A stretch of DNA of 64,000 nt, from NCBI GenBank assembly GCA_028712255.1, contig JAQTQJ010000005.1, positions 20,950-84,949 of the forward strand. Direction: 5' to 3'. A program made the translations under genes and the position numbers. The DNA is from Candidatus Omnitrophota bacterium. GTDB lineage: Bacteria > Omnitrophota > Gorgyraeia > Gygaellales > Profunditerraquicolaceae. Below the pieces are notes generated by a model. That model ran no database searches and had not been told where the DNA came from. It worked only from the letters and a program-made list of their open reading frames with translations. Position 1 is the stretch's first letter; the number at the start of each line of letters is the position of its first letter. Below, one piece after another: positions 2 to 26,484 of this stretch.

Positions 2-3000
2 TCGTTTCTTGTAGAGATAACAAAAGGAGGAAGAATATCAGATGGGGCTCTAGAAGTTTTGGCAGAGGCTTTTGGTCGGATAAATATAACCGGCGCAGAT
101 AAAGAGTTGCATCTTGCAGCACTTGTTTCAATTGTTTACCTTGTCCTTCCGGGGATAGATGTATCAGAGGTTATGTCAATTTATTTGGAGAAAGAGAAAG
201 AGTATTTGACAGGGGTTGGATTAAAAGAAAGAGTAAATTTGGCAGCGTTTGTGGGGCTCATGGCCATGCTTTATTATCAGGATAAAAACGGTAGAGATGG
301 TGTTTTGTTTAAAAATTCATTGAGTATTCTTAGAACCTTTATTTCCGAAAGTTATTTAAATGTGAGAGACGTCTTGGAGGTTGCTTTAGAGCAGGATATG
401 GAATTAGCCATGGAGTTATTTCATTGGATATTAATAGAGAAGGCTGATTTCCTTTTTTCTGCTCTGACCGCAACGGATATAGATGAAGCTGGCGAAACAG
501 ATTTTATTATCGATGGTGTATTCCTGGCGGATTATTTATTGATGCATACCATGTATCTTACAGTTATAAAACCCGATTCTAAAAGATTAGTGAAGTTATT
601 AAAAATAGACCCGCTCAATACTTTAATCAAAACAGCCATGGCAGAAGCTGTAAATCCAGCCGCTAAAGGCTTAGATTTCTTTGTAGGTTATTCTAATGTG
701 GAAAAGTTTTTCAAACGATTCTTCTATCCGGGTATGGCCTCCGAAGTAGAACTTGTTAATGAGATTAACGAAAGATTAAATAGTTTTCCGCAAAGGGATG
801 CATTAGGAGAAGCACTGGAGATTGAATTGTTAGTCAGATTTTTGTCTGATGAAGACATCGGGATTTTTAGCGATACAAGAAAAAACATCAAATCAAGAGC
901 AAGTATTTTGATTGCATCTGTTAAAGAATGTGTGAGCCCTGCGGTTATGTCAAGATCAGGCTTACAGCGTGCGGATGCAATCATAGCCGAAAAAGTTAAA
1001 AAGTTTATTGGAGGTGACGGTTTATTAAATAAGGAGGCGATGGCAGGCCTTTTAGAAGCCATAATCTATTTTTCTGAAGATGTTTTAATGGATATTTTTA
1101 GTAATGTTGTTGTGCCTTTTGCCACTAAAGGCCAGTTTAACTTTGGGGGCCGTACTTATAATGTTGAGCCAGGACAAGTGAGCAAAGCTACTGAAATATC
1201 TGTAAGTTCGCTTATCCGGGTGTATCTTGGGCATGGGCATCCTCAGTTTGAAATGCTTAAGCCGATTTTTAGGCGCAATATCAGAAAAATTTATGAACTG
1301 AGCCCGGACCCTGGGAAAAGGATAATAAGGGCAAGCATTGAAGAAGCAGGAGCTGATACCCACGAAGTGCTAGAGGTAAATGAGAGAACAATTACTTTTC
1401 ATGCGCAGTTGCCTCGGCAGCTAGTTTTAATAAATTTAGCTAAAGATAAATACGTACAGAGAAGTGATATTTTAGAGACAAGCGTAACGGAAATCAAAAG
1501 AGGCAACGCAATAACCGTAACCGCAGAGCCGCTTACTTTTAAACAGGAAGAGATTGTCCGGCAAGCAATTGTTGATGGCCTTACGCAAAATAGTGGCCGG
1601 ATGCTTACCGCTGAAGAGCTCGCTGAGCATGATCCAAAAGGGACGGTATCCAAAAATAAAACGATAGTTTATGTATTGCCAGAATTAGCTATTACAGATC
1701 ATTTTTTAGTGGCGTATGCAAATAGGCAAATGTTTGGTATGCGGGTTTTTATTTCAGAAGCCAAATGGGTATTCATTAAAGGTTTACATGAAGATACCAA
1801 AGTGGAATTTTGGAAGCACGAAGTTTTAGGGCATCTTAAACATCCGTTATGGAGCGAAGCAGAAGTTAAAGCAAAGTATCCTTCAGAGATGGTGGTGATA
1901 CCGGCGACCGATCAGGCTACTCTTCCACAGATGCTTAAATTAGCCCTGGAATATGGCGATCCAATCGCCGCCGTAACATTAACCAGGGAGAAATTCCGCA
2001 ATTACGGACCTCCTAATGAGCCTGTTAATTGGGATGAATATTTAGTTTGGTTAGTAGAAAAAAGACACACCTATGCCCTTGAGCAAATCTTGAATAGTAC
2101 ACCTGATGATAGAGAAAAAATAAAAGCTTTGATGGAAAGAATCATCTTTATTAAAACCAATAATCCCAAGTTAAGAAAAATAGAATATAGTCCAGAGATA
2201 AAGCAAAAATTATTGGATGTCTGGATATTCGCTCTCTATAGCCCGGATATAGAAAAATTAACCTCTGCTTTGGCGTTACTAGAAGAATTGAATGCGCAAT
2301 ATCCATACCAAAATGATGGATTAGAAGATGGGGATTTAGTTGTTGGTAAGACTGCAAGGCCCTGTCTTACTTTTCAAATTAAGACTCAAGTTACAAAAGA
2401 ACGCAAACGTAAATTGGTGAATTCTCTTAGAGAAGCTATAGTTGCTTTAGGTTTTGGAGAATTAAAAATCCAAGATACACAGGAATGCCCCTTATCTGCA
2501 TTTGCGGAATCTTTATTAGCTCAGAATCGTTGCATAGTTCCTGCAGGAACGCAGGTTGTATTTCAAGATATAGCCGGCCGATATGCGATTATATTAAAGC
2601 CTAATATAGGCCGAGAATATTCGGTTGCTTTTTCTGACAGACAGACATTGCAATCTGAAGATTTTACTGTAGCAGGCTCTTTTGTTCCAGGTAGTACAAG
2701 AATTCAAGATATAGAAATAGTCGTTGGTGGCATAAGAAAGAATTTACTGGATTTTATAGTTGAAAAAGGCTTTGCACCCGAAGCTATCAAAGAGAATAGT
2801 TTATTTCTTGAGGCAAGTTGTTGTTTTATTTATAACCCTTCTGATGGCAAATTACGTATGATCGAGGGGCGGCAGGTTAAACAATTTAAATACAAAGCGG
2901 ATACAGGCGAGATTACCTGGTGGAATAGTTACTTGCCTCGTTTAAAGATATTTTCTGATAATCAGACAGGATCAGCCCGGGGAGTGTTGCCCGGGGAAAA

Positions 3001-6000
3001 GGTTATTTTTGTCCATAGCCACGGCATAAAAAGAAGAAAAGAAGAGTTGAGAGCTTCTAGCATGGATGTTGATTTTGGCATAGCCTGGACAAGGTGGAGC
3101 TCTATTTTTAGAGTAGGATTATCAAATTCTCAAAGCGACCTAGTTATGGGGACAGGAGATAGCCATGATCTGATAATTAGCGAAACAAGGAATGGTTTTA
3201 AATTTCTTTTACTACATTGCAGCGTTCAAGAAAACTATGCCGTTTGTATGAGCAAAAAGTATAATTTTTCTACACACCGATGGGAGAATGAAGGAATAGA
3301 AAAAATAGAATTTGCTTCAGGTATTCCTGGCGCATCTTATGCTAAAAACGGGGGTGTAACTTTAGTTTGCAGAGATAACGCAGAGGCTTTGCCTACGGAT
3401 GCAGATTCGTGGGGACGGCGTTTAGCGTTGTCCCATGAAGCAATAAGCGCAGATTTTTTAAGTAACGGTGATTACGCCTGCGCCATAGCTGCTTTGAGGT
3501 TGGCATTAGTACATTTACCTAAAGGAGTGAAAAATAAAAATATAAGAGACAGGATTCAGGAAAAGCTAGCGCAGCTTATAGTAGGGCGGGAAGCATCTCA
3601 TCCTAATAATGGAAGCAATCATTCAGAATTAGATTTAGGCGCCTCTGGTTTCGAAGGCGAGGCAATGTTTGCAGAAAGAGCAGCAGAGGTTAAATATGCG
3701 CAGAGCCACTGCGTGAGTAAGCTTAATAATGATAATGAATTGATAGAAGGCGTACGCTGTTTCTTAAGGCAGCTTGATTTATTCCGATTGGCTGATAAAT
3801 ATAAAGAAATTGAGGTTCGGGTAATAGGAGGTATGGGATTTAAGCACCGCGGATGGTGGAATATTGAAAATGGTAGATTGATAATCTATATTAAAGAAAC
3901 ATACGCATCCGATGTTCTTGATTTACAGAAAGTAATTCTTCATGAGATACTGGCGGCAAGCAGAAATCCTGTTTTTGCCGGTAAAGAAGGGCACAATAAC
4001 AGCCTAGCCCTAGAATGTTTATATACCTCCTTCTGTTTGGATTCAAAGCAAATGACAATAGGCGAGTTATTAAGATCTTATGATCCACATGGATTGTTGC
4101 GTCGTATAATTTTCAGAGCTATTCTTTCTCATCAGGAAGTAATCGATGCGAAGCTAGATTTAGGCGCATCAGCCAAAAAACGCCAGCCTGAGCCTACCGT
4201 GTCTTCATTGTCAAGGGTAGCGAAAGTTATTTTATGTTTAATTTTAGCATCTGTAGTTATTGTAGCCCATGCGGTATGGTTATTATTGTTGATTATGTTC
4301 GGTGGTGCTTCACAATTTAATTTAATGGATATATTTGGGATAAATATTACATGGGGTTGGTTGATTATGATGGAGACTATGATTGCAGTGGGGTTAATGT
4401 TTGCTTCGTTTATCATGGATGATGGTTCTATAGTTATAAGCGATGTGAATCTGCATAAAGGCCATACATCTCCTAGGGCTACGGAGGAAGATATTGTGCT
4501 AAGCAATGAACAGGCTATAATGTGGATTCAAGTGAAGCAGGAGCAGGGAGCAAAAACAATCTCCGTTCTAGGCGGTAAACCGGTTAGTATCAAAGAAGCG
4601 ATAGAAGGTGTTAATGACGGAAGATTCGCTGGTTCTCTTACTGGAGGAGATAACAAGCTTATACTGCAGGTAAAGTATCCTTCTGAAAAATTACCTACCA
4701 ACGCTTACAATTCAGATGTTCCTTGCGCGACGCCTCCTGTCCTTACTATTATTGATACCTATGAGGCGGCAGAAGAATTCTTTATTCGCCGAGGCTGGAA
4801 ATCGTTACCGAGATGGGTGGTGGGAATATTTGTTAGCCCTTGGTATGAATTTCAATTCAAGTGGATTTTGCATCCTGTAAAATTTATAAGAGCGCACATT
4901 AATAAAAACATATGGCAGCTTATTTCGCGGATTACTGGCGTAATATTTATGTATGCGGCTATGCTATGTTTTCTATTTCCTGCCATATACCTGTTTTTAA
5001 CCGCGCCATCTTTTAACGTTCTGCCGAATATAATTCAATCCGTACTTTATGGCATCATGGCTTTTATCGGTGTGCACTTTGTATACAATATAGTATTCTT
5101 CTGGGCAATGCTAGTCTTAGGAGATGATTTGCGTTTTCATAGTGAATATAAGCGAGTTTTTACTGCTCAACAAATTCGAGGGTTTATTAGTTGGCTTATA
5201 GAAGGAGAATTGCAACATGAACGGCAGAGGATTGTTATTGGTTTTGTTGAGGGGTACTCAGAAGGTATTTTCCGGAGGGAGGGCGTACGTATTCATGTTG
5301 CCAAGGAATTTTTGGATAGTTTTAGTGAATTATTAATAAGGCAGAAATTACGAAATGCTCTTGTGGATAGGGATTACAAGGAACAGGATCAATATTCTCG
5401 CGCTTTAGAATTAATAATTCAGCAGGCCAATATTATTTTAGGGCCGCAATTGTTTGAAGATTCTTCCGTTGAAATAGTTGACTTAGCTAGGCGTTATCTT
5501 ATTGATGCAGTTGTCAAACATAGTGCTTGGCTTATTACTTTCAGCGGTATTTTGAGTGTGTGGGAAGGTGTTGTGCATAGTATGGAGAGCCAGGTAGATG
5601 CTCGCCAGTTCGGCGAATTTATGAATCGATTATACAGGATAGCTATAAAAGAGCTAGATGTTGAATGGGTTATACGTAAAGGAGCAGTATTGGACCGGGA
5701 GATAATGGTTGTTATTGGAAGAAAGATGCTTTCATTGATTCCTGATCATAATTTCGAACCCACTATTTATAGCGTTTTAATGATTACTCCGGATTTCTCC
5801 TTAGAGGAAGTTAGAAAACGCATTATGTATCTATTAAGTGATTGTATTACCGATGAAACAATTAATTCTTTAAAAGAAATTCTAGTTAAATTAGATAAGG
5901 AGAAAATTAATCCGGAAGCCCAAGCTAAAGTTATAATGGCTTTAAAATATCTTTGTTTTGATGTGAATCCTGGGATATCTAAATTTGCGCGTATTCTCTT

Positions 6001-9000
6001 AGAGGCCTTTGAGCCTAGTTTTCAAAGGGGCCAAACCAGGGTTGATTACGCAATAGTAATAGGTATGGCTTCTGTTTTAACTGCAGTTATTGGTTTAGTT
6101 TTTAATGTAGAGATTTTAGATATAATTAATCAGATCGGCTCCTGGCTTACTGTGCTTTTTCATAGCCCTCCAATACAAGTTAATTTTAATTCTTTACCCG
6201 CCATATCAATTGTAACTGCAATTCCCCTTATTTGTTTAATCGGAAATTTCACACATTTTAACTATGTTTTTGAGCCTCAAGGATATATGTTTTTACATGA
6301 AGATGAGGCTGTTCGGGGTTTAGCAAGGAGAGCATTTAATCTGGCTACAGGAGATTTCTATAGGCAGATATTTAAAGAGATTGGCTTAGGTGATAGGGTG
6401 AGAATATTAGATATCGGTTTCGGCGAAGGTTCACATGTAGCCAGCCTTCTTTCGCAAACAAGACATAAGATTGTTGGCCTTGAAGTTATGCCTGAGTATG
6501 TGAAAAAGGCAAGAGAGAAAGATCCTTTGCAGGAGGTGATTGAAAGCGGATGGTATCATATGCAATTTTCTGATAATTTTTTTAATGCAGTTAGCGGGGT
6601 TAATGCGCTTTATTTTGCCGGAAATGAAAAAGAGTTAAGATGGTTAATTACGGAAATTGACCGGGTAATTAAAGCAGGCCCTGACGGGGTAAAAAGGATT
6701 TATCAGCTTTTTGATCGGCCGCTTACCCAATATTGGTTTACTATTGAAGAATGGTCGGTAATGGAGTCTTTAGGTTTATCCACTCCTGCTTTAAGAGTGA
6801 TGAATAATGGATGGAGAAGATTCTTTACAGTCTTGAGTAGCATTTTTAATGAATTAGGTTATGAAGTTAAGCTTTCTTATGTAACCAAAGAGGCGCAAGG
6901 AGAACGCACTGTCTCTCAAAAACAATTAACTTCAAGCTCACGCGGAAATAAATTCTTCTATGATGTAAATGGCAATCGGTCAGTTGAATATAGTAGTTTG
7001 ATTAGTGAGCCCTATGTGGCAGAAGAGGTGGGCGTTTATATTGTGAGGGCATGGAGACGAGAATCCGTCACTAAAGAAGATATGGTGATTCCTTCTGTTG
7101 CCAACGGTTTCTTTGGAAAACATATAAAAATAGATCAAGCGATGGCAGAGAGGTTGATTAAAAGACTGTTTACTCCCGAAGAATTACCAATTGTTAGTTA
7201 TTCTATTGAGCGCCATGAAAATGCGGAAGCCAAAGGTAAGTCACACTGGAAAGCGATAGGTGAACAAAGGAAGGTAAGTGGATATGAATTGGTAAGGGCA
7301 AGGTTGGAATTGTTGCAGATTCTTATTTACTTAGGCTATAAGAATGAAGTGGATTTAATTTCTATGTTTACCGAAATCCAAAATTTATCTTCGCGTAAAG
7401 AATTCACTGATTTCCGGGATAAAATAAAATCAGCCAGAGATACTGAGCAATTAAGGTTAGTTCTGGATGGGTTAATTTCGGTATTCTGGGGCCAGGGTTA
7501 TAGTAATGTAAATAAATACATGCCTATCTTTGAGTTTTTGGTTAATGGTTTACTAGACAAAGATATTTTCAGATTTATAGAAAATTTAGATATACCGTTA
7601 GAAGAACAAGGGGTCCTTAAGAAATTTATAATTTCCTGCGCTACTTTCCATCAGCTAGCCTATATTATTTTTAGTCTATGGGGTATTAATGTGCAGGCTG
7701 CATTTGCTCCAAGCCATGCGTTTCTCCTTATGCCAATTAACCGGCAAAAGGCCATAATTGTTGATTACAGCCTTGAAGTGGTGCGTGTAATTGACCTTTG
7801 GAAATATACTCGGAAAGGAAGAAAATTTGTTCTAATAGAAGAATATCGGGCTCCGTTAGGAAGAGTAATTGCGATTCGTAAGCAAGTCCGCGATGGTAAT
7901 TTAAAAGACATAAGCAGCCTTTTAGACGAAGAATTACTTAGTTCATATTATCCATATATTGAAATTGTCCCAGCCTACGGTTTTACCACAGGTATTTATA
8001 ATGATGTGGGTACTGTTTATAAGGAATTGGGCATGTACCATGAAGCAGGTGGCTATTTTCAGCAAGCTATTAAATTAATGCCCAGTCTTCCTGATGTCCA
8101 CTTTAACTTAGGCGTTACCTATTGGTGTCAGAATAGACCAAGAGAAGCAGTTGAAGAATTAGAGTTAACTACTAAGTATGATCCCGATGACACCGATGCT
8201 TACTATAATCTTGGCACGATTAATTTAGAATTAGGCAGGCAACAAAAAGCAATGACGGCATTAATAAAAGCAATTGAGCTTAATCCCCTTTTAATCGAAG
8301 CCCGTTATAACTTAGCCAATATTTATATGACGCAGGGTAGGTATCTAGAAGCAATCGAACAATACGAAATAGTAATTGTAATAAAACCCGATTTTGCACA
8401 AGCCCATTATAATCTTGGTATAGCTTACTGGCAGATAGGTAATCGGGATAAGGCGTATGAGGTGTATATTCGAGCCATTATATTTTTTAGAAGATGTCTT
8501 AATACTTTACCTCCCGAGGAAGATATGGTCGGGACAAGAATAGATGATCATTCTGTTTCTGGTGCAACTGAAGATGATGTAAGGCGGGAGTTATTAAGAT
8601 TGAGGGAGTTAAGGCTGATTTCTGAATATACGTTAATAGAAGAGGATCATATAATAGAAAGAGCCAGTCAGCTCTATCAGCAATTAACTGGCAAGATAGT
8701 TGATCTTAGAATTTCCAATATTCATTTTAGAAGAGCTCCCTTCGCAAGTAGATACCGCGCTTTCTGGTTGCGCGAAGATAACAAAATAAAAATATATATA
8801 AAAGGAGAGGCTACGGCGTACGATATCCTGCATGAATTCCTGGCTATTTTAGACAAGACAGGCCATTTGTCTAATGTAATTCTTAGTTGTGCTTACCTGC
8901 CTTTATTTGCAAGGAGATTTATTTACAGAATTGTCAATGGTAGGAATAATTCTGCTGTAGATTTTGCTTCTTATGGGGGATTTGCGCGTTTAGGCAGGTT

Positions 9001-12000
9001 TTTAGTAGGGACGGTTCTTGCTCTAATTGGTAAGCTGTCCCTTAAAAGGGGCACTTCTAGCTTTGACACAAGAAACGACCCTAAAAATGTACCGCCTTTC
9101 GTTTTTATATCAGATAAATTCACTTCGCGCGAGAAGCAATTGATTCAAAAAATAACAGCCGAAGTTATTGGTTTGCTTGTCCCTCAAGAGAAGCAGCAAA
9201 AACTAGCCCTACACCCACTTTTTTTCAAGAGAGTGAATGCGTTTGATGTGCTTGTGGATCATAAATTCATATGTACTTTGTACATTCTCAGTGTGTTAAT
9301 TATGTCAGTCGTGAACATCATACTAGGCAGAGATTTATTTTTTAATATTACGACATATCTAGTTGTAGTAGCAATATTATGGGTTGTCATAAACTATAAG
9401 TTCTATAGTTCGGATTTTTCGTATTATATTCAAGGAATAAGGAGGAGGCATAAAATTCTTATTGGCTCTTATATATTTGATGAGCAACTGGTCTCTATGG
9501 TAGCGCATGAAATGTATCATTATCTGAATTCCATTGGTTTAATTAAAAATCCTGATTTAACAACAGCTTTTGACATGCTTTTTACTTTGGAACACTTTGG
9601 GGAAGAAGCTCTTGATGATCATGATTGGTTGGAAGCTGGAGAGATACTTATGGGGATTCCAAATCCGGAAGTTAGGGAAAAAATTTTGTTAAAAACTGCA
9701 AGAATCAGCAGGTTTGCTTTATTGATGAGAAAAGTTTTCGGGTATTTACCTGAGAGATCATGGGGATATATGTATGGGCGCCTCCAAGCAGCCAATGCTT
9801 ATGCATTATCGAGTGTTTTGAATGGCCCACAAGAGGTCAGTTTTATTGCTCGGGATGCCTTGGAATACATAATATTACGCGTCCATGGCTATGAGCCTGG
9901 CGCGGCAGAAGAAACCATTAGAACATATATAAATAATAGGAACAGTTCTGCTTCCATTGGAAAACCCCATCACCTGCGCCCCGTTACGCAGTGGTTGGCT
10001 GGCCAGATTCTCAGGATTGTTGCTCGTCAAAAAGATAATATTTTCTTTAAAGTCTATCGGGAAACCTACAATGCCAACTTAGCCTACATTCAAGAAATCA
10101 ATGGCAACCGAGGCCCGCCTATATTAAAGAAATTTCTTGCTTTTACTCGCCCCATTGCCCGCGGCCTTACTCCTGATGGCGCTATCTGTTGGCTTATTCC
10201 GGTTAAATTTACTACTCAAGAATACCTTTCCGATGAAACCATTGCCTCTATTAGTAAACACGAATCCCAATCTACAGAATTAGAAGGCTTAATCGCGCAG
10301 TATAAATTAGGGACAGTTCTGAAACCAATAGAGAACCGTTTCTCATTTAAGGGGCATTTTAGTTTCGGCTCAATAATCGTCTTCAATAGTTTTTTGAGGC
10401 GCCTGTTTATTTTAGCGGCATTTATAAGTTTAGGAATAGGGCTTTTTTATGCCGCGAGCATAAGCGGGTTGATGAATTGGTATTTGGAAATAAAGGGAGT
10501 TATTCCTGAAGGCTCTTTGATAGGCTCGCCGAAAGCCATATTATTAGATATGCTCACGGGGGTATTGATTTGGGGCTTGCCTGATTTAGCCGGGCAGTAT
10601 TTAAAAGGCAGCCGCATAATATTAAAACAGGCCTTTATTTTGGCTTTTGCCGGTTTCTTTATCGGCGCCCTTTTGCATTTACTTTATAATTTTCCCGAGG
10701 CCGTTCTTCCCTATTTTATGTCACTTTTGGCAAGCAATATCCTGTTGGCAAAAGTGGCAGCCATAGGCGTTGTCCTGGTGATCGGCGTAGGCATCGCCGT
10801 AAGTTATGGCCGCCTCATCTCTTATTTAAAAGCTAATTTCAGAAAAGAAGAGGAAACCGGCAGAGGAATAGAGGCTTTGAAACTTTATGAAGTGCTCTTG
10901 TATAAACTTTTTGTAACTCCAGTTGTTTTAATTTTCATCGTTTTAACGTTTGAGCCGGTATTGCGTGTATTAGTTTCATTGCCTGTTGAAATAATAAAGA
11001 TGATACCGGTAGGGTACCTTATGAACCGTAGAGAGCCGCTTTTTATCACAGGTATTATTCAAAATATTGCTAGGTTTAAGCATTCTGTTGGATATGCCCG
11101 CGGGCGCAAGGATGTTTCTTCTATGCTTGATTCTCAAACTACAAGCGGCCCGGTAAATGGGGACGCTCCCCAAGGGGACACCCTTTATTGCAGCATTATT
11201 CCGGTTGACCCCGCATTATTGGCGCGTTGGGGTAAGCTATTAGCAGGGATACTTCTTAAGCTAATCGAAAAAGTGTCCTGTATCCGTGAAGGGGACAGGT
11301 TCAGCTTTGGTGTAAGAAGCGTCCTTAAATCTATAGGTATCGTAGCGGTTTTTGTGGGCAGCGCTTTTATGATGGCGCATGGGTTAAAGTCAACTGCCGG
11401 CACTGAAGGCTCTTTTGATGTGTATAGTTATATAGTAATTTTTGCCGTTAGTTTTTTAGCAGTATTGTATTGCGTGCTGTTCTTAGGGGCAGCGCTAATA
11501 AACGCTATGACAGATGAATCCGCCAAGAGGGCTTTTGAGAATCAATCTCTCGGGGTATATTATTTGAACCGTGGGGAATACAAAATGGCAAGCTGGTATT
11601 TCAGAAGGGCTGTAGAGTTTGCTCGTAATAGCAGAAAAGACAAATTCCGTTCCGCGTTGGTTGTGGAGAATGTTATGATGGAGGTTTCACGGACAGATTT
11701 CGTAAAAGCATGTGAGCGCGCGCTGGATGCGATACGCAGGTATTTAGATTTAGGCCAGGCCAGAAAAGCAGCTGATATAAAGGTAGGCATTGATAATTCA
11801 ACAACTACAATTATAGCGAGAGAAAACGTGAGGCAGCATGGCCCATTTATGGTTACAAATGAAGAGCCTTTTTCTCATGGCTGTCTGCAATCAGAAATAG
11901 TAAACGCCGATGATCCCTGCGTGCAAAGAATATTAACTGGCGCTTTCGGCGGATTTAACGCCAACAGCCGCTATTACCTTCTCTTTGGCCATTTAGATAT

Positions 12001-15000
12001 GCCTGTTGCCTTAGCAGAAAAAAGAGGAGGCATTTTATCGGGAATAAGGCCTTATATAGAGAAAACGTCTGCAGTATCGCTTATCAGTTGCAGTATTAGG
12101 TATTATCAGATAACGCTTGCTTATTTATGCCGGTTAAGGGGGTTAGAAAATGAGCAGCCAAATAGAGAATTACTTAAAGATATAGAGAGAATCTATACCC
12201 CTAAAACGGCAGATGCATTGTATTTGATGTATTTTAAAACAGTATCCCGCCTCAGGCCTTTTGAAATAAAATTTTTCCATGCCTGGTTCCATTTCCATCC
12301 GTTTTTTAGATGGATAAAAGGGTTTGACCTTCTATATAGGGCGATGGATGATTTAATAGCGCGGGAATCGCAGGAAGTTATTTCCCAGGAAGAAGGATTA
12401 TTAAGAGAAGGGGGCAGGCTCATATATATCCTGCCTGAGCAGATTGAAGAGGTAGCAGCCCTTTGGGATAAATACCCTCGGGGCAAGCGCCAGCCTTTAA
12501 TTCAGTTTTTGGTTGAGTCCGCGCAGTTAAACAGTTATCTATGGGATAAGGAGAGTAGTTATCAGATATACGAACAATTAGCAGAAAGAATCATACCCAG
12601 GGTGTGGCTTACGGCGACATTGGATGAAGCAGGAATGCTTTGCGATTTAATATGGCTTTTATGCCTCAGCGGCTCATACCCGGTGCGCGCCAGATTAGCC
12701 CAAAGCGTATCGTCTTGTCTTTCCGGGCTAAAAACAAAACGAGAAGAAGCTCAGCAGGAAAAAGGAAAATCGCCGCTAATTAAGCTTCAGGCATATGTTC
12801 TGGAGGAGTTTCTTAAGGCCATATATGTAATGTTACTTGGAGACAGTTCGCCTGTAGTCGTAGCAGCAGCTGAAGGCGAGATACGCTTTTTGGTTGGCGC
12901 AAGAGCAATAACCCGCGAAGAATACCTAGCTATGGAAACTTTTTGCGCAGGAATAAAAACCGTACCTGAAATGTTACCAGGTATAGGATATACACCCATA
13001 ATTCCTGAAGGGGCAGAATTAAGATTGCCATATGCTGAAATGACTCAAGGCATAAGGGACATGCTTGGACTGGGTGATTTACCAATCGCCTATAGATTGT
13101 TAGATGAGGGGGTGCGGCGGATAGACCTTTTTAGCCAACAGAAACCGCGCCATCCTTTGGCTCGTCTTTTTGCTTGGCCTCGGGTGTTATTAAGAAGGCT
13201 TACTTTATTAGGCCACGGTGCTCCGAAGCAGTTGCCTGTTATCCGCGCCATCATCCTTAGCTCCCAGCGCCAGGCAGTAGAGAATGATATCATCCGTGCT
13301 CCCCCCGCTGTAATAGAAGAGGTTGACTTCCACCTTCAAGGCTTTGCCCCTGCCCACCACCAAGCCGGTAAGATTTGTTATGAGGAATTTTCTAATTTAA
13401 ATAATTTAATCGAAGCAGTGAGGCGAGCGCAGCATCCGTTCTTAATAAGCTATGCCAGCGGCAAATTTCATTTAGGAATTCTCTTAGATAAGGGGGCATC
13501 TTGGTTGTGCGGGAAGGATTATATTAAGCAAAAAAGGCAAGAGCATTATGTGGGCAGGTATTTTCGTTTAGAAGAAGAAAGAGACTTGGGCATACGAGAG
13601 CGTATATTTCAATTTGAAGCCGCGACAAGTAATCAGTTAGCAAAGGTTTTAGACGGCCAACAAGTTTTGATTATCGGCCCAGGGGATAATTTAGATGAAG
13701 CTGCATACTTTATTAGAAATTACCCGGGCTTAGCGAGAGTGGTAGTTGTAGATTGGCATCTGCCAAATATTATTGATATATTGGAAAAGATGGCAGGATT
13801 AGAGCAGCCTATTAGGGAAAAGATAGTATTGTGTTATAGCGATGCAGCAAGCATGGTTTTTGATGGGGTTTTTACTATTTGTTATTCACGGTATACAATG
13901 GTAGGCGATATCCTTTCTGATGCCGTCATTGATTCTATATGGAGCAGAATCGCCTTAGCGCTTCAGCCCGGCGGATTTTTCATCGGTTATGCGCATGAGG
14001 CTGCGGCATTTTTTGAGAGTTTTAGCAAGATTGCCGGAGGACAGAAATCAGTAAGTATTGCGGTGAGAAGAGAAGGTATCTCTAGGCCACTAGTTAAATT
14101 CGAGAGCAGGGACGGCAATGGGGACGTTTCCCAAGGGTACACCCTTCCAGCTACTGGTTTAGATGGTGAGCAAGTAGTAACTGACGGTATCGTACGTCTC
14201 AGTGCTTTTACAGGCGCGGGATTAATTATGGCCTCTGCGCAGACAGTTTTAAACAATAACTCCTATTATTTGGATCCGCTTTCAGATTCTATTTTCCAGC
14301 CTGCTTTTTTGCTCGAGCTTATGAATAGAGGCCCGCCTGTAGAGTTGTTCGGTATTTCCTCTGATTTATCAGCCCTCTTTTTAATTCCTCTTGTAGCATT
14401 CTTTGCTTTTCCCTCTTTAAGAAGATTTATAAGTACCTTCTGGGCTAGCTTAAAAAATAATCTCAGGGTGTCCCTTTTGAGGACGTCCTTAACAGTGCAA
14501 AAAATATTTGAAAGAGTATTAAATTTAATTAAATCTTTACTGCAAAGTAAAAAAACATCTAATGGCGCGTTTGCATTAGCTCTGTTGGAATTAAGAAAAG
14601 CAAAAGAAGGGCAAAATATTCCCGAAAGGTTAAGTGAAAAGTTAGCATACCTATTTGCATTAGCTGCAAAATATTCTCATTATTCATTCGAGTTTTATGA
14701 ATGGGAAGAATTGGCGCAAGCGGCGGGTTTAGAAAATCCTAAGAAAACAAGAGACTCAATGCCAGATACTAAAAAGGCAATCAGGGTAAGCGCATTTGAT
14801 GTTTATAGAATAGCTAGAAGTAATTGCGTAGAGAGAAGACATATCGAACTGTCATTCTTTAAGCGGTTAATTAGCGGTTCAAAAAGAGTTTTTCATGGCC
14901 GATATATTAAAACATATGGCATATGTGATTGCATAGCTGTAACTTTATATAACAGACAAAATAGAGTAGGGGCGTTATTGCATTTATATAGAGGTTCCAA

Positions 15001-18000
15001 AGTAGACAAGGTGGTAGATAAAGTTTCTTTAGAATTAGAAAGGGAGTTTAATTTAAGGCCTCAGGATTTCAAAGCGCAACTGGTCGGTGGTTGGTGGACG
15101 CAGTCTCAGGAGCTTGCACTAAAAATTACAAAATGCCTTGAAGAAAAACAGATAGCAATCGAAGGAATTGATGTTTTAAATAATCCCGAGAGGTTTATTT
15201 TTGATGGCAGGGACGCTTTCTACGGAGATTGTAGGATCATTTTAGATTTAGAAACAGGAGAAATATTTGATCTTATAGATTTAATAGAGCCTCACGACGG
15301 AATCTCAAGGCATATTATGCACTTTAGATATTACGCTGAATATATATTTAGGAGGATTTATAATGGAGGACAGCGAATGTTTGTTTTGGCTAAAAAAATT
15401 ACCGTTGTCCCCAATTTAAAGAAACTATTTTTAAGTTTATTAATTGCCATGTATTTTTTCTTAAGCCCCTTGCCTAGTAATATAAGTTTTATTGCTCCAG
15501 GGGTGGTTACAGCGAGTGCCCAGACGCCAACTCCTACCCAATTGTCTACTGAAGATGATTATCTAAATCGAGGTAACGAACATTTTTTTAAAAAAGAATA
15601 TGATGCGGCGATTGAAGATTATACTCAGACAATAAAATTAAACCCAACAAATGCCTTTGCTTATCATAATCGAGGAGTCTCATATAATAACAAAGTTGAT
15701 TATGATAGAGCGATTCGAGATTACGATCAGGCAATATTACTAAATCCAAAATATGCTGAGGCTTACAATAGCAGAGGTCTCGCTTATTATTTTAAAGGAG
15801 AAAATGAGAAAGCAATAAAAGATTATGATAGGGCAATAGAATTAGAACCCGATAATGTAAAGTTTAGAGATTTTCGAGCAGATGCTATAGGAAAATTATC
15901 GGTAAAACCAACTTCTACCCTTACAGCGACAGTTACGCGTACTCCTATACCTAAAACATCTACTCCTGTACTTAAATCATCTACGCCTACAGCAACAGCC
16001 ATACATACTCCCATCGTAACCAATTCGCCAACGCCAACATTTATGCCTATCGTATCTAGGGTGGCGACATGGACAGTAATACCTGTTTCCGCAGTTGAAG
16101 GCCCTGGAACGTTGGATAGGATCAAAGATCACTTGAAAGATAAGTGGTTGTGGTTAATTTTTACAATAGGACTAATAGCTATTTTTATTAAATGGAGACA
16201 GCGAATATTTATTTTTGCTCAAAAAATGGTCATTATTCCTAATTTAAAAGGATTTCTTAAATTTAAACCAGTCAGATTTTACTTAGGGTCGGGTAAAGAA
16301 ATTAATAAATTAACTATTCAAGAACGGCTATCTCTAGCCAAGCTGGCAGATCAATATTACGTTAAACAGATTAAGGATGTCCAGCCGAGCCTTATTTGTA
16401 CTGTTAAGAAAATCTTTAGCTTGAGGGGCCTGATCCTTATGTTGGCCGGAGGATTGATTACTTTTAAACTTTCTGTTTCCAATGATTGGCTTACTTTGGC
16501 CCTCGGAGCATTCTTTATGACTTTGTTGCCATACCTGCTTTCTGTCATCTATAATTTCTTCTTTTCATATATAGAACGCTATAGATTCCGTAGTGAATTT
16601 GTCAGGCAATATCTAAGAGATAAAAAAGTACAAGATAAAATAAAAGAAGAGCTTTCACAGATTAAGTCGGTGACTCAACCTTTACTTTCCATTAGAAGTT
16701 TATGGAATGATTTTACTTTAAGATCTCCTGTGTTTGCCGGTATTGTTATCTTTATTTTAGTAAAGGCCCAGATAGTTTTCTGGGGTTACTTAGCTGGTTT
16801 GGCAATTATCCCCTTGATTAGAATTGATATTGTTAACTTTACCTTAACTGGCATATTATCGACAATTTTAAAACTTATAAAATGGGAATGGTTTATCACT
16901 CCGGGTTTACAATTGGTAAATACATTAAATAATTTGGGTTTTGCTTTTACATTAGGGGATATTATTAAGTTGAGTGTAATTGCTTTAGGGTTAGCAATAC
17001 TATACACATCGCGCCACCGTAAAACATTACGTAAAATTGTTATTCATAATTTTAGGCAATTCTGGGTTAATCTAGTACACATCCTGGTTATTATTGCTAT
17101 AATGGGGAATCTCGGACTTAGTAGTTTTATGTTAAATAATTTCAAGCAAGCAACTGGAATTAGATTTCCTCAAGCGATTCATGCTCCTCTTAGCGGTAAA
17201 GTGGATGCAGGAATTTGGAATAGGGCTAATTTTATTTATCAACAGTTAAAAATAAATTCCGACTTAGCTTTGAAGATGGAGAACGGCCAGCAAGAATTGG
17301 AATTTCTATTAGAAGAATTTAAGGCGGGTAATGATATTAAAATCGAGGGGCCGACTGCTCCGGAGGTCAGGCAATTTTGTCTTTTCCTTCTGGGTCAGAA
17401 AGACAATACTCGGTCTAGAGAACTTCTTAATTTAGCTTTAAATGATCCGGATAAAGATGTACGCACGATGGCAATAATTTCTTTAAGTATAGCTGGCGAT
17501 ACGAAAGTAGCGTCTTTGCTTAATAATGCTTCGTTTAGGCAGGGAGGCCAGGTTCAGCAAGCGGCAGTTATTAGTTTGAAAAGTGTAAAGTCTTCTGAGG
17601 TAACGAATTTTCTACTAAAGAGTTTAAAGGATAATTCGCGTTCGGATATCCGTTCTGCTGCGGCAGGGGGGTTGATGGACAGAGTAAGCTTGCAGACAGT
17701 TAAAGATGCTTTGATATTCGCTTTAAATGATCCCGATCCGCTGGTAAGGAAAGCAGCGATTAAATCTTTGGCGCCGATAATCACAGCTGTAATTCCTCAA
17801 GTGGATTTAAAGACAATTGAGTCCATAAAACCACTTTTGTCTGATCCGGATTTGAATGTTCGTCAAGTTGCAATATTAGTTCTAGCTTTACGACTAGATG
17901 ATTTTCCTGGTAATTTAGGCCTTCTTATGCCTAAATTGACTGATTCTGATCAGCAGATTCGTTTGACTACCGTAGCAGCCGTAGGTTCACACCTAGATAA

Positions 18001-21000
18001 GTTTCCGCAATTAAAACAGTCATTTTCCAATATTGCTAAAGATAGTTCGCAGCCCATTGAGATTCGTAAAGCTGCAGTTTTAAGTTTAGGTAATCTAAAA
18101 GATTGGTATTATTTTGTATCTCTAGCTTCAGATCCTGATTGGCAAATACGGGAAATTGTAGCGACTTCTTTTGGCTATTTTGACCAGTTTCAAGCTTTAT
18201 CGTATCTTAGACCGTTATTAAAAGATGATTCTGCAAAAGTTAGATTAGCGGCAGTGAATTCTCTTAGTCATTTCGACGATCCTCAGGTCTCTGAGATTTT
18301 AATCTCGATATTAGAGGATCATGACTTGCAAGTCCGAGAATCTGCGCTTAATATATTAGTTGATAAGAAGCCTCTGGAATTAAAACAGGTGTTCTTGGAT
18401 GTTGGTAGGGATATCTCTCAACCTGCTGAGGTTAGGCAAGATACGCTTCTATATTTATGCAATATAGATTTCTTAAAACGCAATATTTCATCGCCCAATA
18501 GAGCTCAGTATGTTGGTGGTTATAATTTTTTAATTAGTTCAGAAAAACTTCAAAGGGTAGCCTTATTGTTAGGTAATCTGAAAGGTATAATGATTCTTGA
18601 TTTACTTAAGCCTTTAACTAAGGATCTTAATGGGCCGGTGCGGGGAGCCGCTGCTACTTCACTTGGTAATTTTGACCAACCGGAAACCATAGATTATCTT
18701 AAGCCGCTTTTAAATGATTATGAGTGGCCAGTGAGAGTGGCAGCAATGCGTTCTTTAATTAAATTTAATGATCCTCGAGTTGCTGAATTATTAATTCCCC
18801 TGTTAACTCGCCCTGTTTTAGTAGAACCAATAGGTTATAATCCGTGGGTCCGAGAATATACGATTAGCGCCTTGGCTGACAATATAAATCGACCTGAAGT
18901 AAGGGAGATTTTTTTAGGTTTATTAAAATCTTCGTTTAGGGAGGAAGACGCGATTCTGTCAATAATTTCCCAGGCAAATTTAAAGACAATTGAGTCCGTA
19001 GAACCATTTTTGTCTGATCCTAATCCAAGTGTTCGGCGAATTGCAGTATTAGTTTTAGCTTCAAGGTTAGATGATTTTCCTGAAACATTAACTTTCCTTA
19101 TTCCACTTTTTAATGATAATGATTCACAGGTTCGCTCTACCGCTGTTTCAGCCTTAGCTCCGTATATAGGTAAATTTTCGCAATTAAAGCAGCCATTTTT
19201 CAATATTGTTAAAGATGTTTCTCAGCCTATCGAGGCACGCCAGAACGCATTATTTTATTTATCGAAGCTCGATGTCCCGGAAGTAAAAGCTTTGTTAGTT
19301 AGTAATTTAAATAATACTGACTGGAAAATGCGCCAGGCTGCAGTATTAGGTTTAGGTAATCTCAAGGATTCTGAAATTCCCGATTTACTTAAGCCTTTAA
19401 TTCGGGACCCTTACGAGAATGTCAGGCAAGCCGTTGTAACCTCTCTTGGTAATTTTAATCAACCCCAGGTAATTAGTTATCTTAAACTGTTTCTAAATGA
19501 TGATTCTTCGAATGTGCGTAAAAGTGCGATATTATCTATAGGTTCAAGGTTGGATGATTTTCCTGAAAATGTAACTCTTCTTACTCCACTTTTTAATAAT
19601 AAAGATTCACAGGTTCGCTCTGCTGCTGTCTTAGCTTTAGGCCCATACCTAGATAAGTTTCCGCAATTAAAGCAGCCATTTCTGGATATTACTAAAGATG
19701 TTTCGCAACCTATCGAGGCACGCCAGAATGCATTATTTTATTTGTCGAAGCTCGATGTTCCGGAAGTAAAGGCTTTATTAACTAGTAATTTAACTAGCAC
19801 TGATTGGAAAATGCGCCAGGTTGCAGTATCAGGTTTAGGTAATTTTCGAGGCCCCGAAATCTCTGGCCTACTTCAACCTTTAACCTTAGATCCTATTTCG
19901 GCTGTACGTGTGAGTGTTGCATTATCTTTGGGCCAATTAGATGAACCCCAGGCAGCGCAATCATTAGCATTTTTATTAAAAGATAATGATGTTTCTGTTC
20001 GTCAAGCCGCGTTGACATCTTTAGGTCTAAAGTTAGATCTTTTTCCTAAGAATTTAGATCTTTTGATACCGTTTTTAACTGACCCAAATTTACAGATTCG
20101 CTCTACTGCCGTTTCAGTCTTAGGACCAAGTATAGATAAATTCCCACAATTAAAACAACCATTCCTAGATATTGCTAAGGGTCTTTCTATGCCTATTGAT
20201 ATGCGTCAAAATGCGATGTTTTCTTTATCTAAGCTTGATACTCCTGAAGTAAAAGCTCTGCTAACTAGTAATTTAGCTAATACTGATTGGAGAATGCGTC
20301 AGGTTGCAGTATTGGGCTTGGGTAATTTTAAAGGTCCTGAAATCCTAGATCTGCTTAAACCTTTAACCCTTGATCCTGCCTGGCAGGTCAGACAAGCTAC
20401 TGCAACTTCTTTTGGTAACTTCAACCAACCTCAAACTATAGATTACCTTAAGCCGCTTTTAAGTGATAGTTATTGGCAAGTACGGTCGGCTACTACGGCC
20501 TCTCTTGGTAATTTTAATAATCCTCAAGTTCTAGATTCTCTTATCCCTAGACTAAATGATCCTGCTTGGCAGGTACGCGAGAGTACGGCAGTGTCTTTGG
20601 GTCAATTCGATGAATCCAAGATGGTGGAATCATTAATGCCTTTATTAAAAGATAATAATGTTTTTGTGCGGCAAGCCGCTGTATTATCCTTAGGAGATAA
20701 AGTTAGATTGTACCCGCAGTTGTCAGGAGAATTTGTCAATATTTTAAAAACAGACAACGATCTTTGGATTAAACAAATCTCTGCTTTTTCTCTGCAAAGT
20801 ATAAATACGCCGAAGGTAGAGGAAGTAAAACCATTAATTAAACAAGCCACTTCAGAAATAAGAGTTGTCGTTATTATATCTGGAATTGATGATTGGTTAG
20901 GATTTTTTCCCTTGACGGGTCGTAAAACAGGTGAGACTGGATTGAAAAATTGGTCTTTAGTTAATATACTAAAAGCGGGTGGTTTACAGGTGGTTGAACA

Positions 21001-21796: not shown

Positions 21797-21935
21797 GAAA
21801 GAAGATGAAAAAAACTATTAATTTATAGGTGTTTTTTTGGAAATAAGCCTAGCGGTAACTATACCATCATACACGCTGCCATAATAGACTTATACACTAT
21901 CACCGCGCAGCGTTAAATAGAGAGGAGAGAGTATA

Positions 21936-22337
21936 ATGAATAAGATAAATTTATTTTTACTAATAGTAATAAGCTTAATAGCAATCTGCGTTGATTGTTA
22001 TGCTGGGTACTTTCTTTTTTTTATGACCGCTATGCCTATAGGGTATTATTTATCTCCAATTTTATTATTGATTATTGTTATATCGGCGCCAACCATCTTT
22101 ATTGTTTCGATTATAAATTTATTTAAATTTAAAAAATGGGCGTATTACGCATTTTTTATTATAACAGTCTTGATGCATTTGTTTTTGATAGGGTTAGATA
22201 TGTATTTTTTAAATACTAAAATAATCAAGTACCTAAAGATCGAACAGTTCATTCCCATAATTTCATTGTCATTTTTCGTTATATATTTTATGCTTCCATC
22301 TACCAAAAGCATGTTTAAATATATATCTAAAACATAA
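21936..22337 (+). CDS. Small hydrophobic membrane protein with about 4 TM helices; hypothetical.
   Basis: ORF of 133 aa, strongly hydrophobic and Ile/Leu/Phe-rich. Preceded by gagaggagagagtataATG. Confidence 0.4.
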   Translation: MNKINLFLLIVISLIAICVDCYAGYFLFFMTAMPIGYYLSPILLLIIVISAPTIFIVSIINLFKFKKWAYYAFFIITVLMHLFLIGLDMYFLNTKIIKYLKIEQFIPIISLSFFVIYFMLPSTKSMFKYISKT

Positions 22338-22394
22338 GCAGAACAAACATAAGCATAAGTAAGGACCGTCTGTTTTTATCTATTTGTAGATTAA

Positions 22395-23005
22395 TTAGTT
22401 CCAACGGAACGGTTCCGTTCTTTGAAAAGCTTGTTAGAAATATCTTCTTTCTCCGTCTATTGTCTTAGGAGGGAGGGTATATGGCAAGACAAGAGAGAAT
22501 TTACTTTGAGAATGCTGTTTACCACATAACAATAAGAGGTAATAATAAACAAAATATCTTGAAGCAAGACGAGGATAAAAAAAGTTTTCTTGAGTCTTTA
22601 GTAAGATTCAAATCTCGTTTTGGATTTAAGCTCCACGCTTTCGTTTTAATGGATAACCACGTTCATCTTATTATTGGGACTAACAGTAAGATAAATATAT
22701 CAAAGATTATGCATGCCATAACGCTGTCTTACAGCGTTAAGTTTAGGAGAAAGTATCTTTATTCTGGATACGTTTGGCAGGGAAGGTTCAAAAGTAATGT
22801 CATTGATGGTGATAGATATATTATTGAATGTTTAAACTATATCCATAACAATCCCGTAAGGGCAGGCATGGTTACAAGGGTCGAAGATTACTTTTGGAGT
22901 AGTTATCAATTTTGCAATGGATTAGAAAATAAAATTAAAGATTATATTCAGATAGATTGGTTTAAGGATAATTAAAAAGGGGACAGTTCCTTTGGAACGT
23001 TATAT
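22395..23005 (+). mobile_element. RAYT unit: tnpA(REP)-like gene bracketed by short palindromes, 22403-22419 aacggaacggttccgtt and 22979-22999 ggggacagttcctttggaacg.
   Basis: The hairpins share the GGGGAC(A/G)GTTC core with the dispersed hairpin family found elsewhere in the window. Confidence 0.6.
22481..22975 (+). CDS. REP-associated tyrosine transposase (RAYT, IS200/IS605 TnpA-like, HUH family).
   Basis: Motifs NAVYHITIRGNN, FVLMDNHVHLII (HUH), YVWQGRF (catalytic Tyr region) and NYIHNNPV. RBS ggagggagggtatATG. Flanked on both sides by GGAAC/GTTCC hairpins. Confidence 0.85.
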   Translation: MARQERIYFENAVYHITIRGNNKQNILKQDEDKKSFLESLVRFKSRFGFKLHAFVLMDNHVHLIIGTNSKINISKIMHAITLSYSVKFRRKYLYSGYVWQGRFKSNVIDGDRYIIECLNYIHNNPVRAGMVTRVEDYFWSSYQFCNGLENKIKDYIQIDWFKDN

Positions 23006-23786
23006 ATACCAAAAAGTTAGAAGGAAACGGTGCTGTGTAATAGATTATGCAAAAAATCTTCTTCAACAAGCTGAGATTTCTAGAGCAGGCAATTTAACAT
23101 TTATATTACATAGCGAAGCTAACAATGTGGCTTTTGATGGGATTTCTAGTATAGTTGATGACGCTAGAAAGAAAGGGATAAAAATCAATATTGTTAGCAT
23201 CGGATCACCGTCTCCATTTAGGACTATTGATTACCTTAAATTTTTAAAGCAGAATAAAGACATTGTAAGGTATGAAAATTTCGTTAATACAGCTGATCCT
23301 ATTGCTTGGTTGAGTCTGTCATTTTTGAATCCAGATACGCATTATATTCTTGGTTTAGATTTTATAGGAGCGCATGGGAGTTATTTTTCAGACTCAGGTG
23401 TAAGGCAAACCGCACTTTCAATGGCTACAGGAGTAAATATTCCTATTGGTTACTCTAATTTTTCTACTGGTTCTTTTTCTGATCCTTATTTTTCTGGTAC
23501 TTTTAGCGTGCGAGAGACAGTTATTTATCCTTCTCCAGATGTAAGAATTACCCAAACAAATATTACATCTAATTATGGTTCAAATTACCAGATTTTTTCG
23601 AATTCAAGTATTCCGTCTACTCAATTTGTTGCACCGCAACCATTTAATTCTTCATCAAATTATCAGGTGCCAGATTTTAGTTCTTGGAATGGTAGTAGTT
23701 TTAAACCTCTCCCAAGTATTGATTTTTCTCCGCCTAGTATTAGCATGCCCTCGAGTCCTATTCAAAGACCGGGTAATGGACCTTAA
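22992..23786 (+). CDS. Hypothetical protein with a Ser/Pro/Asn-rich C-terminal half. Start uncertain; TTG at 22992 per the ORF track.
   Basis: 264-aa ORF directly after the RAYT gene. No recognisable domain. Low-complexity S/P tail. Confidence 0.35.
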   Translation: MERYIYQKVRRKRCCVIDYAKNLLQQAEISRAGNLTFILHSEANNVAFDGISSIVDDARKKGIKINIVSIGSPSPFRTIDYLKFLKQNKDIVRYENFVNTADPIAWLSLSFLNPDTHYILGLDFIGAHGSYFSDSGVRQTALSMATGVNIPIGYSNFSTGSFSDPYFSGTFSVRETVIYPSPDVRITQTNITSNYGSNYQIFSNSSIPSTQFVAPQPFNSSSNYQVPDFSSWNGSSFKPLPSIDFSPPSISMPSSPIQRPGNGP

Positions 23787-23799
23787 AAAGGAGTGTAGA

Positions 23800-25134: not shown

Positions 25135-25307
25135 CTCTATTTCCCGATTAGCTTGGAAACTGTTTCGGTGTAACATGTTGTACTGCAAATGGTTTGGAAT
25201 AAATGCGTTTGTGTAGAAAAATATTTTTTTCCTTGATTTATTCGGTGAAATAAGGGATAATATTTGTAAGTTAACTTGTCTCAGTGGCTTAGGGATGGGA
25301 GAAAATA

Positions 25308-26369: not shown

Positions 26370-26484
26370 TTTAGCCAATAAAAAACTTGACCTGCTGGCT
26401 AAAATATGTTAAATTTTAATATTACGTCTTTTTATAATCTATTCCTATTGGGTTAAGCCTCCACGACAAACGGAAGGAGATAAA

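Follow-up and report, generated by a model that had tools for sequence, protein, structure and literature searches.

What does enzyme-like sequence contribute to a giant membrane protein? The question arises at the left end of a 64,000-nucleotide stretch of Candidatus Omnitrophota DNA (the window: contig JAQTQJ010000005.1 of assembly GCA_028712255.1, positions 20,950 to 84,949, forward strand), which is occupied by one very long open reading frame (ORF). An earlier inspection of this DNA, made from the letters alone (the sequence-only reading), had noticed a class I S-adenosylmethionine (SAM)-dependent methyltransferase motif at nucleotides (nt) 6340-6720 and a second, 'Rossmann-like' stretch at about nt 13660-13990, and had proposed that the protein is more than a structural adhesin. 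We consider it likely that the window encodes the C-terminal part (at least 7,245 residues) of a giant, multi-pass Omnitrophota membrane protein that embeds two class I SAM-dependent methyltransferase domains, named MT1 and MT2 here:

2..21796, + strand: giant ORF, 7,245 amino acids (aa) counted from the first TTG at nt 59
6254..7069, + strand: MT1, class I SAM-dependent methyltransferase domain, aa ~2066-2336 (Pfam, PDB sequence matches, AlphaFold2 and Foldseek)
6404..6430, + strand: motif I of MT1, ILDIGFGEG, the glycine-rich SAM loop after strand 1, aa 2116-2124 (alignment and model)
6482..6484, + strand: Glu2142 of MT1, the acidic residue ending strand 2 (IVGLE; alignment and model)
13388..14158, + strand: MT2, divergent class I methyltransferase-fold domain, aa 4444-4700 (family profile, AlphaFold2 and Foldseek)

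The two methyltransferase domains

The peptides quoted in the sequence-only reading all lie in the frame of the giant ORF: GDRVRILDIGFGEGSHVASLL...NAVSGVNALYFAG spans aa 2111-2188 (nt ~6389-6622), and VLIIGPGDNLDEAAYFIRNYPGLARVVVVDWHLPNIIDI spans aa 4536-4574 (nt ~13664-13780). The start coordinate given for the first site was one base out of register (the codon register begins at 6341, not 6340), and a direct translation of 6340-6720 shows stops for that reason. The assignment of the first site to class I methyltransferases held up: as an isolated domain, MT1 exceeds the curated Pfam cut-offs for both Methyltransf_25 (PF13649: E 2.6e-9, 38.1 bits, cut-off 27) and Methyltransf_11 (PF08241: E 4.5e-9, 37.3 bits, cut-off 21.2), the Pfam-matched core being aa 2116-2207 (nt 6404-6679). 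A sequence search of the PDB with MT1 returned 3l8d (E 2.5e-5) and 1wzn (E 6.8e-5), and the predicted fold is also that of a methyltransferase. Motifs I and II and the spacing of motif III had all been claimed for this site; the first two motifs survive alignment to 3l8d and 1wzn. The ILDIGFGEG loop, where strand 1 of the model ends, aligns with VLDVGCGDG in 3l8d and VLDLACGTG in 1wzn. Glu2142 forms the terminus of model strand 72-77, aligns with an Asp in both PDB entries, and would be expected to act as the ligand of the ribose hydroxyls; both this residue and the motif I loop are kept in P0121, an orthologue described below. The acid of motif III (the adenine contact after strand 3) is not present: opposite the GD of 3l8d and 1wzn there is ESGW / TGNW, with a Trp that P0121 has as well. 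Motif III is without its acid in many active class I enzymes; since the position is not universal in the superfamily, its loss from MT1 is still compatible with membership.

The AlphaFold2 model of MT1 was built from an alignment with 52 generic class I methyltransferases that passed a profile search, seeded with relatives of 3l8d and 1wzn. Its mean predicted local distance difference test score (pLDDT) is 70.5, and strands and helices alternate as expected for the seven-stranded alpha/beta fold, with an insertion of ~60 residues, containing extra hairpins, modelled at low confidence between strands 6 and 7. Foldseek matched this model to more than 1,000 PDB chains at E<=0.001, 3l8d being the top match (E 1.2e-11), and each of the 50 best matches is a class I methyltransferase or an enzyme with the methyltransferase fold. 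Because the alignment was seeded with methyltransferase relatives, we take the fold result to corroborate the Pfam assignment, not to prove it independently. Judged by its profile matches and its model, MT1 belongs to the class I SAM-dependent methyltransferase superfamily and is of the generic Methyltransf_11/25 type. A word-index homology search with MT1 was empty, and no confirmed relative emerged from a scan of genome contigs with MT1 or of metagenome contigs with MT1 and P0121.

The second stretch merits its description as Rossmann-like, for a class I methyltransferase fold is supported there by a family profile, by hhalign and by a structural model. The Rossmann core of MT2 covers aa 4535-4646 (nt 13661-13996); G4540-P-G4542 and E4547 are key residues in it, as are D4565, which ends strand 2, and D4595, which follows strand 3. 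On its own, MT2 matches no Pfam methyltransferase model at E<=10 (one spurious match was returned), nor any PDB sequence; BLASTP between MT1 and MT2 is not significant, and a word-index homology search with the 940-aa soluble region around MT2 was empty. Even an exhaustive phmmer search of 1.84 billion cluster representatives yielded only 24 proteins at E<=0.001, two of which are evident repeat-driven false positives. The family so obtained has a compact signature, LIIGPGxxxxEA...P...(D/E)W.(E)PNI...D(A)...L.PGG: a conserved Pro follows LIIGPGxxxxEA, the strand-2 acid is followed by W.(E)PNI, and then come the Asp after strand 3 and L.PGG. In the family alignment, residues G60, G62 and E67 and the PGG motif show little or no variation.

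It is this family, rather than MT2 alone, that connects to known enzymes. A profile of MT2 and 21 relatives matched 106 PDB sequences at E<=1, nearly all of them class I SAM methyltransferases; the best is a phosphoethanolamine N-methyltransferase (E 4.7e-11). PF08241 is matched individually by 12 of the 22 family members, and hhalign paired the MT2 family with the MT1/generic alignment at a probability of 96.6% (E 5e-10), from motif I through the motif that follows strand 5. The AlphaFold2 model of MT2 has a mean pLDDT of 76.8 (84-96 in the core of strands 1-5), and Foldseek matched it to 686 PDB chains at E<=0.001, with methyltransferases as all the top matches. In this model G4540-P-G4542, D4565 and D4595 stand at the ends of strands 1, 2 and 3, which are the canonical positions for contacts with the cofactor. 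Taken together, profile and model indicate that MT2 is a real, divergent class I methyltransferase-fold domain of a rare subfamily that current Pfam does not detect here; intermediate sequences and a predicted structure can give a fold to a stretch that Pfam leaves unannotated. Both domains have a methyltransferase-fold match and a Rossmann fold in the predicted structure, the features whose absence the sequence-only reading had named as counting against it. Profiles of the MT1 and MT2 families found no third methyltransferase-like copy in the window part of the giant protein.

Relatives and layout of the giant protein

The word-index search with MT1 had missed P0121, which was recovered by exhaustive search; an empty word-index result does not, therefore, confer orphan status on contig-truncated fragments of giant genes. 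P0121 is a 1,688-aa product of an uninterrupted ORF that spans the whole of a 5-kb contig in a different metagenome-assembled genome (MAG; assembly GCA_030647935.1). It is 63.7% identical to MT1 over 262 residues (P0121 aa 41-301; E 1e-98) and 32% identical over ~290 residues to the MT2 module, including the N-terminal extension of the latter and the 'SAQT' segment that follows it. Nothing else in P0121 aligns to the window protein. The order, MT1 then MT2, is shared. An interval of ~1,100 residues, with Methyltransf_28 and Methyltransf_11/23 domains in it, separates the two modules of P0121; in the window protein the interval is ~2,100 residues and holds TPR repeats and some ten membrane helices. 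Conservation is far higher in the enzyme module MT1 than in the protein around it: because 64% identity persists while the flanks have diverged beyond detection, the constraint on MT1 appears to be much stronger than that on its surroundings, and this argues for a functional MT1.

MT2-like copies are found in several other settings: a complete 1,896-aa protein ends with three of them in tandem, others are in large fragments with sugar-kinase, PPDK_N and cation-efflux domains, and others again as stand-alone genes of ~200 aa. It is because of this variety that the giant proteins look like mosaics of shuffled modules. On two contigs (L078, 4045-6663, and L079, 1163-6444), stand-alone ~200-aa members of the MT2 family lie beside genes for family-2 glycosyltransferases (GT2), in divergent orientation to them, and on L078 GH116 and GH8 genes are near as well. 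A GT2 gene thus adjoins a stand-alone MT2-like gene on two of the four informative contigs, the remaining contigs being short or having unrelated neighbours; we offer this adjacency as a lead only.

The reading frame of the giant ORF is already free of stops from nt 2, with none between nt 2 and nt 59. Since the frame is open from there, the left edge of the window cuts the N-terminus of the protein, the true length of which exceeds 7,245 aa. The stop-free run amounts to 21.7 kb in a genome of 38% G+C. In the Logan assembly of run SRR22315508, a 12.7-kb contig (L001) is 100% identical to window positions 15665-26437, and this independent assembly takes in the final 6.1 kb of the giant gene along with the genes downstream. 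From that contig, and from the occurrence of both methyltransferase modules in one ORF of another MAG, we infer that the giant ORF is not an assembly accident. Apart from its C-terminal fragment, the giant protein was not found in the sequence collections searched.

Within the 7,245 aa available (the N-terminal remainder lies outside the window), the only domains above threshold in Pfam and NCBIfam are methyltransferase, TPR and HEAT. The repeats are:

7994..8488, + strand: TPR repeat block 1, aa ~2646-2810 (Pfam TPR_1, TPR_2 and TPR_11, E down to 1e-29)
15560..15883, + strand: TPR repeat block 2, aa ~5168-5275 (Pfam), 3' of a hydrophobic segment that reads as signal-peptide-like
17357..20725, + strand: array of HEAT / PBS-lyase-type repeats, aa ~5767-6889 (Pfam HEAT_2, E 1.9e-139, 16 stretches)

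NblB/CpcE-like repeats of NCBIfam also match the HEAT array. Of the giant-protein residues encoded in the window, ~1,300 are TPR or HEAT scaffold, and a self-BLAST of aa 1-5760 revealed no internal repeats at E<=1e-3. The Pfam scan of the same 7,245 aa found no SecA_DEAD, glycosyltransferase, glycoside hydrolase, C39/S8 peptidase or NUDIX domain, and no dockerin or other peptidase domain.

Several further segments of the giant protein have recognizable character. At window 15377-15526 (aa 5107-5156) there is a signal-peptide-like segment that looks complete, with a Met, a KK-rich n-region and the hydrophobic core LFLSLLIAMYFFL, followed by TASA|QT; TPR repeats and a Thr/Pro-rich linker come after it. 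A second such sequence, 'MASAQT', lies just 3' of MT2 (window 14234-14248, aa 4726-4730), its P0121 equivalent being 'ITSAQT'. These SAQT-type segments may mark former genes that have been fused, or they may be signal-peptidase-type processing sites within the giant protein. Two HExxH zinc-peptidase-like motifs are also present, HEVLGH (window 1811-1825, aa 585-589) and HEMYH (window 9503-9517, aa 3149-3153), together with two degenerate look-alikes, 'IYIK...LHE(I/F)LA', at aa ~1275-1300 and ~2910-2930; the HEMYH region has a weak match, below the cut-off, to DUF5700 'putative zinc peptidase' (E 0.018). The HExxH stretches could be minimal zincin modules, possibly self-processing. At window 14921-15079 (aa 4955-5007), sub-threshold matches to Cu-oxidase_4/YfiH (E 5e-4, 20 bits, cut-off 22.9) and to N-terminal asparagine amidohydrolase (E 0.064), with a 'GICDCIAV' motif, suggest a CheD/YfiH-like cysteine hydrolase or deamidase fold. 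The protein closes with a low-complexity tail rich in Gln, Pro and Tyr (window 21476-21793, aa ~7140-7245), preceded by an alpha/beta-like region of ~160 aa (VVVIISGIDDW...IGVILYSGGNY; window 20900-21400, aa ~6950-7110) that has no Pfam match even at E<=5. Searches of the HExxH, CheD-like and C-terminal regions gave sub-threshold hints only. The G+C fraction is 0.43-0.44 over window 10001-14000, which includes MT2, as against 0.37-0.39 on either side, and this is compatible with a mosaic origin of modules.

Membrane topology and possible functions

Where the two domains sit relative to the membrane was approached by a manual hydropathy scan and by counting Lys and Arg residues (K/R) according to the positive-inside rule. 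The scan places at least about 22 membrane helices in the window protein, mostly as hairpins, two of which bear directly on MT1 and MT2:

6050..6250, + strand: transmembrane hairpin directly 5' of MT1 (aa 1998-2020 and 2046-2064; hydropathy); its upstream flank is K/R-rich and its loop is without K/R
11333..11509, + strand: transmembrane hairpin that opens the ~940-aa soluble region with MT2 (aa 3759-3777 and 3791-3817); its flanks have 4 and 2 K/R and its loop has 0

Over a series of eight hairpins or pairs, most flanks have 2-5 K/R, and the short connecting loops have 0-1; the flank just after helix TM6, ahead of MT1, has 0 K/R in its first 20 residues and three Arg within ~30. From these K/R-rich flanks and K/R-poor loops, the large soluble regions between the hairpins, MT1 and MT2 included, are inferred to face the cytoplasm, where SAM is available. 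At least for this part of the giant protein, the charge pattern of the hairpins favours tethered enzymes. The most likely role of MT1 and MT2 would be that of methyltransferases tethered to the membrane as parts of one fused multi-enzyme polypeptide; on their sequences and models, both would bind the cofactor and are probably active.

The substrate is predicted to be a small molecule, lipid or glycan precursor more likely than a nucleic acid. The nearest neighbours in sequence and structure are small-molecule N-, O- and C-methyltransferases (phosphoethanolamine, glycopeptide, prenyl-diphosphate and natural-product enzymes); at only 12-19% identity, however, they do not define the substrate. 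A nucleic-acid or restriction-modification methyltransferase was considered and set aside: neither domain has a (D/N/S)PP(Y/F/W) motif, and there is no target-recognition domain. Models of rRNA and tRNA methyltransferases match the domains at E 0.004-0.14, far below their cut-offs. With no DPPY-type motif and such sub-threshold matches only, methylation of nucleic acid is unlikely. NCBIfam was no more specific (best match the DVU_1556 family, 28.7 bits, cut-off 155), and the RlmA-like, PCMT and RrnaAD families all fell far below their cut-offs. One could go further, to a conserved collinear cassette of MT1 and MT2 in which the MT2 subfamily, rare and with stand-alone members that sometimes adjoin GT2 genes, would be a methyltransferase dedicated to a membrane-proximal glycan or lipid intermediate; we regard this extension as tentative and somewhat doubtful. 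Were it true, the giant protein would be a fused, membrane-tethered biosynthetic assembly line, not an adhesin or a weapon of predation.

Several observations weigh against the picture of two tethered methyltransferases in a giant membrane protein. MT1 has a conserved Trp, not the usual acid, after strand 3, and its top fold match is partly circular, 3l8d/1wzn relatives having seeded the AlphaFold alignment; MT2 has GPG in place of GxGxG, and every Pfam methyltransferase model fails on it alone; the C-terminal strands are of low confidence in both models. The topology comes from a hand-made hydropathy and positive-inside analysis rather than a trained predictor, and the single helix at aa 4770-4787, which is followed by RR, can be reconciled with a cytoplasmic MT2 only if the weakly hydrophobic segment 4713-4731 is a membrane span as well. 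Topology predictions for giant Omnitrophota proteins have moreover been called unreliable (bioRxiv 10.1101/2023.11.21.568195). The motif departures of both domains, and the failure of Pfam to recognise MT2, are what would be seen if one or both were pseudo-enzymes, serving as structural spacers, as sensors of SAM or S-adenosylhomocysteine, or as binding modules in a protein of which ~1,300 residues in the window part are TPR or HEAT scaffold. We think this unlikely: the glycine loop and the strand-2 acid are kept in both domains, as is the strand-3 Asp in MT2; G60, G62, E67 and PGG are near-invariant across the MT2 family; MT1 keeps 64% identity in two proteins that no longer show any similarity in its flanks; and the absence of a motif III acid is, as noted above, common among active class I enzymes.

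The placement of the domains can also be disputed. TMHMM put most annotated domains of giant Omnitrophota proteins outside the cell, and attachment and cell-wall degradation have been proposed for them (bioRxiv 10.1101/2023.11.21.568195). Were MT1 and MT2 extracytoplasmic too, they would act on the surface or contents of prey or host cells, perhaps in predatory cell-wall processing; the internal signal-peptide-like segments and the probably periplasmic TPR and Thr/Pro-rich stretch further downstream lend this some weight. The same study, however, calls its own topology calls unreliable, and giants that bear methyltransferases and have transmembrane helices only have been read as facing the cytoplasm (bioRxiv 10.64898/2026.06.07.730766). 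The hairpins that flank MT1 and precede MT2 show the charge pattern of cytoplasmic flanks, and glycoside hydrolase, dockerin and peptidase Pfam domains are not found in the window part. SAM is not known to be available outside the cell. An extracytoplasmic role is very improbable in our view. A more radical objection would make the giant ORF an artefact of assembly or annotation, or a fused pseudogene, and the two methyltransferases separate, ordinary genes: the in-frame Met and signal-peptide-like segment at aa 5107-5153 do suggest ancestral independent genes or internal processing. We give this next to no credence in the face of a 21.7-kb stop-free frame at 38% G+C, an independent assembly that is 100% identical across the last 6.1 kb, the union of MT1 and MT2 in the single uninterrupted, contig-spanning 1,688-aa ORF of another MAG, and the documentation of giant ORFs, with proteomic support, in Omnitrophota (bioRxiv 10.1101/2023.11.21.568195). 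Our preferred reading is still that of two cytoplasm-facing methyltransferase domains tethered to the membrane by the giant protein.

Genomic setting and comparison with known systems

The MnmG encoded in the window is up to 84% identical to that of Candidatus Omnitrophota MAGs, and ~60 of the 75 loci returned are from Omnitrophota, which places the uncultured host in this phylum. Genes are co-oriented to an extreme degree, with 37 of the 38 ORFs of >=150 aa on the + strand; GC skew is positive in nearly every 2-kb bin of the window and about zero at 20-22 kb. The genes 3' of the giant gene encode an IS200-type transposase, PilZ proteins, an ABC sugar transporter, a GH2 enzyme, ROK and LacI regulators, ribonucleotide reductase, MnmG and a two-component system, which by their annotation are ordinary content of a bacterial chromosome. 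The transposase gene, of the IS200-family Y1 type (window 22481-22975, Pfam E 7.8e-18), lies ~700 bp past the stop of the giant gene, and a Y1 transposase gene is at the matching place in the Logan contig.

Among enzymes of known structure, 3l8d and 1wzn (PF08241/PF13649, of small-molecule type) are the closest counterparts of MT1, which exceeds the cut-offs of both families and shares with these proteins motif I, the strand-2 acid, the motifs after strands 4 and 5 and the predicted fold. It differs from them in its low identity (only 18-31%), in having Trp for the Asp of motif III and in its insertion between strands 6 and 7; unlike PF08241/PF13649 enzymes, it is fused behind a membrane hairpin in a giant protein. 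The counterparts of MT2 are phosphoethanolamine N-methyltransferases and other small-molecule methyltransferases (5wp5, 4krh, 3g2m MtfA and 9sls FPP-MT), with identities of only 12-19%. Set against these, the MT2 family has traits of its own: GPG, an invariant Glu five residues further on, (D/E)W.(E)PNI after strand 2, and an N-terminal extension. Since no substrate-binding residues can be transferred to MT2, its resemblance to small-molecule methyltransferases gives nothing firm about the substrate.

Giant proteins of Omnitrophota with numerous membrane helices have been described (West-Roberts et al. 2023, bioRxiv 10.1101/2023.11.21.568195). They are mostly unannotated, and predation, attachment and metabolism are among the functions proposed for them. 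In that study HEAT_2 and TPR are among the commonest domains, the Archaeovorin-type giants 'consistently' contain methyltransferases, and some methyltransferase folds were recognised by structure prediction only; Archaeovorin traits are a methyltransferase with glycosyltransferase, glycoside hydrolase, peptidase, NUDIX and divergent SecA_DEAD domains (bioRxiv 10.1101/2023.11.21.568195). PF08241 occurs in 137 of the 916 long Omnitrophota proteins of a later catalogue, where it is the hub of a 'Module 1', and 46% of the catalogue has transmembrane helices only and is read as cytoplasmic domains on a membrane anchor (bioRxiv 10.64898/2026.06.07.730766). Both sources place methyltransferases among the commonest domains of these giants (bioRxiv 10.1101/2023.11.21.568195; 10.64898/2026.06.07.730766). 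The sequence-only reading was thus right that the protein is more than a structural adhesin, yet the point was already known for Omnitrophota, because enzyme-rich giant membrane proteins with methyltransferases are documented there.

The 7,245 aa in the window differ from Archaeovorin and 'Module 1' giants in being without SecA_DEAD, glycosyltransferase, glycoside hydrolase, C39/S8 or NUDIX domains, the N-terminus being outside the window. In other respects the window protein resembles them: it comes from Omnitrophota, has a very long ORF and more than 20 predicted membrane helices, embeds a Methyltransf_11/25 domain and TPR and HEAT_2 blocks, and has MT2 relatives in large fragments that also carry PPDK_N, sugar-kinase and more methyltransferase domains. 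Every one of these domain types is named in the two sources. A giant protein with two methyltransferases is one more example of a phenomenon documented in this phylum, and leaves the published picture unchanged. Our analysis goes modestly beyond the literature in placing MT2 in a rare, Pfam-invisible methyltransferase subfamily with a compact signature and, as modestly, in showing that a further large protein of Omnitrophota type has MT1 and MT2 in the same order.

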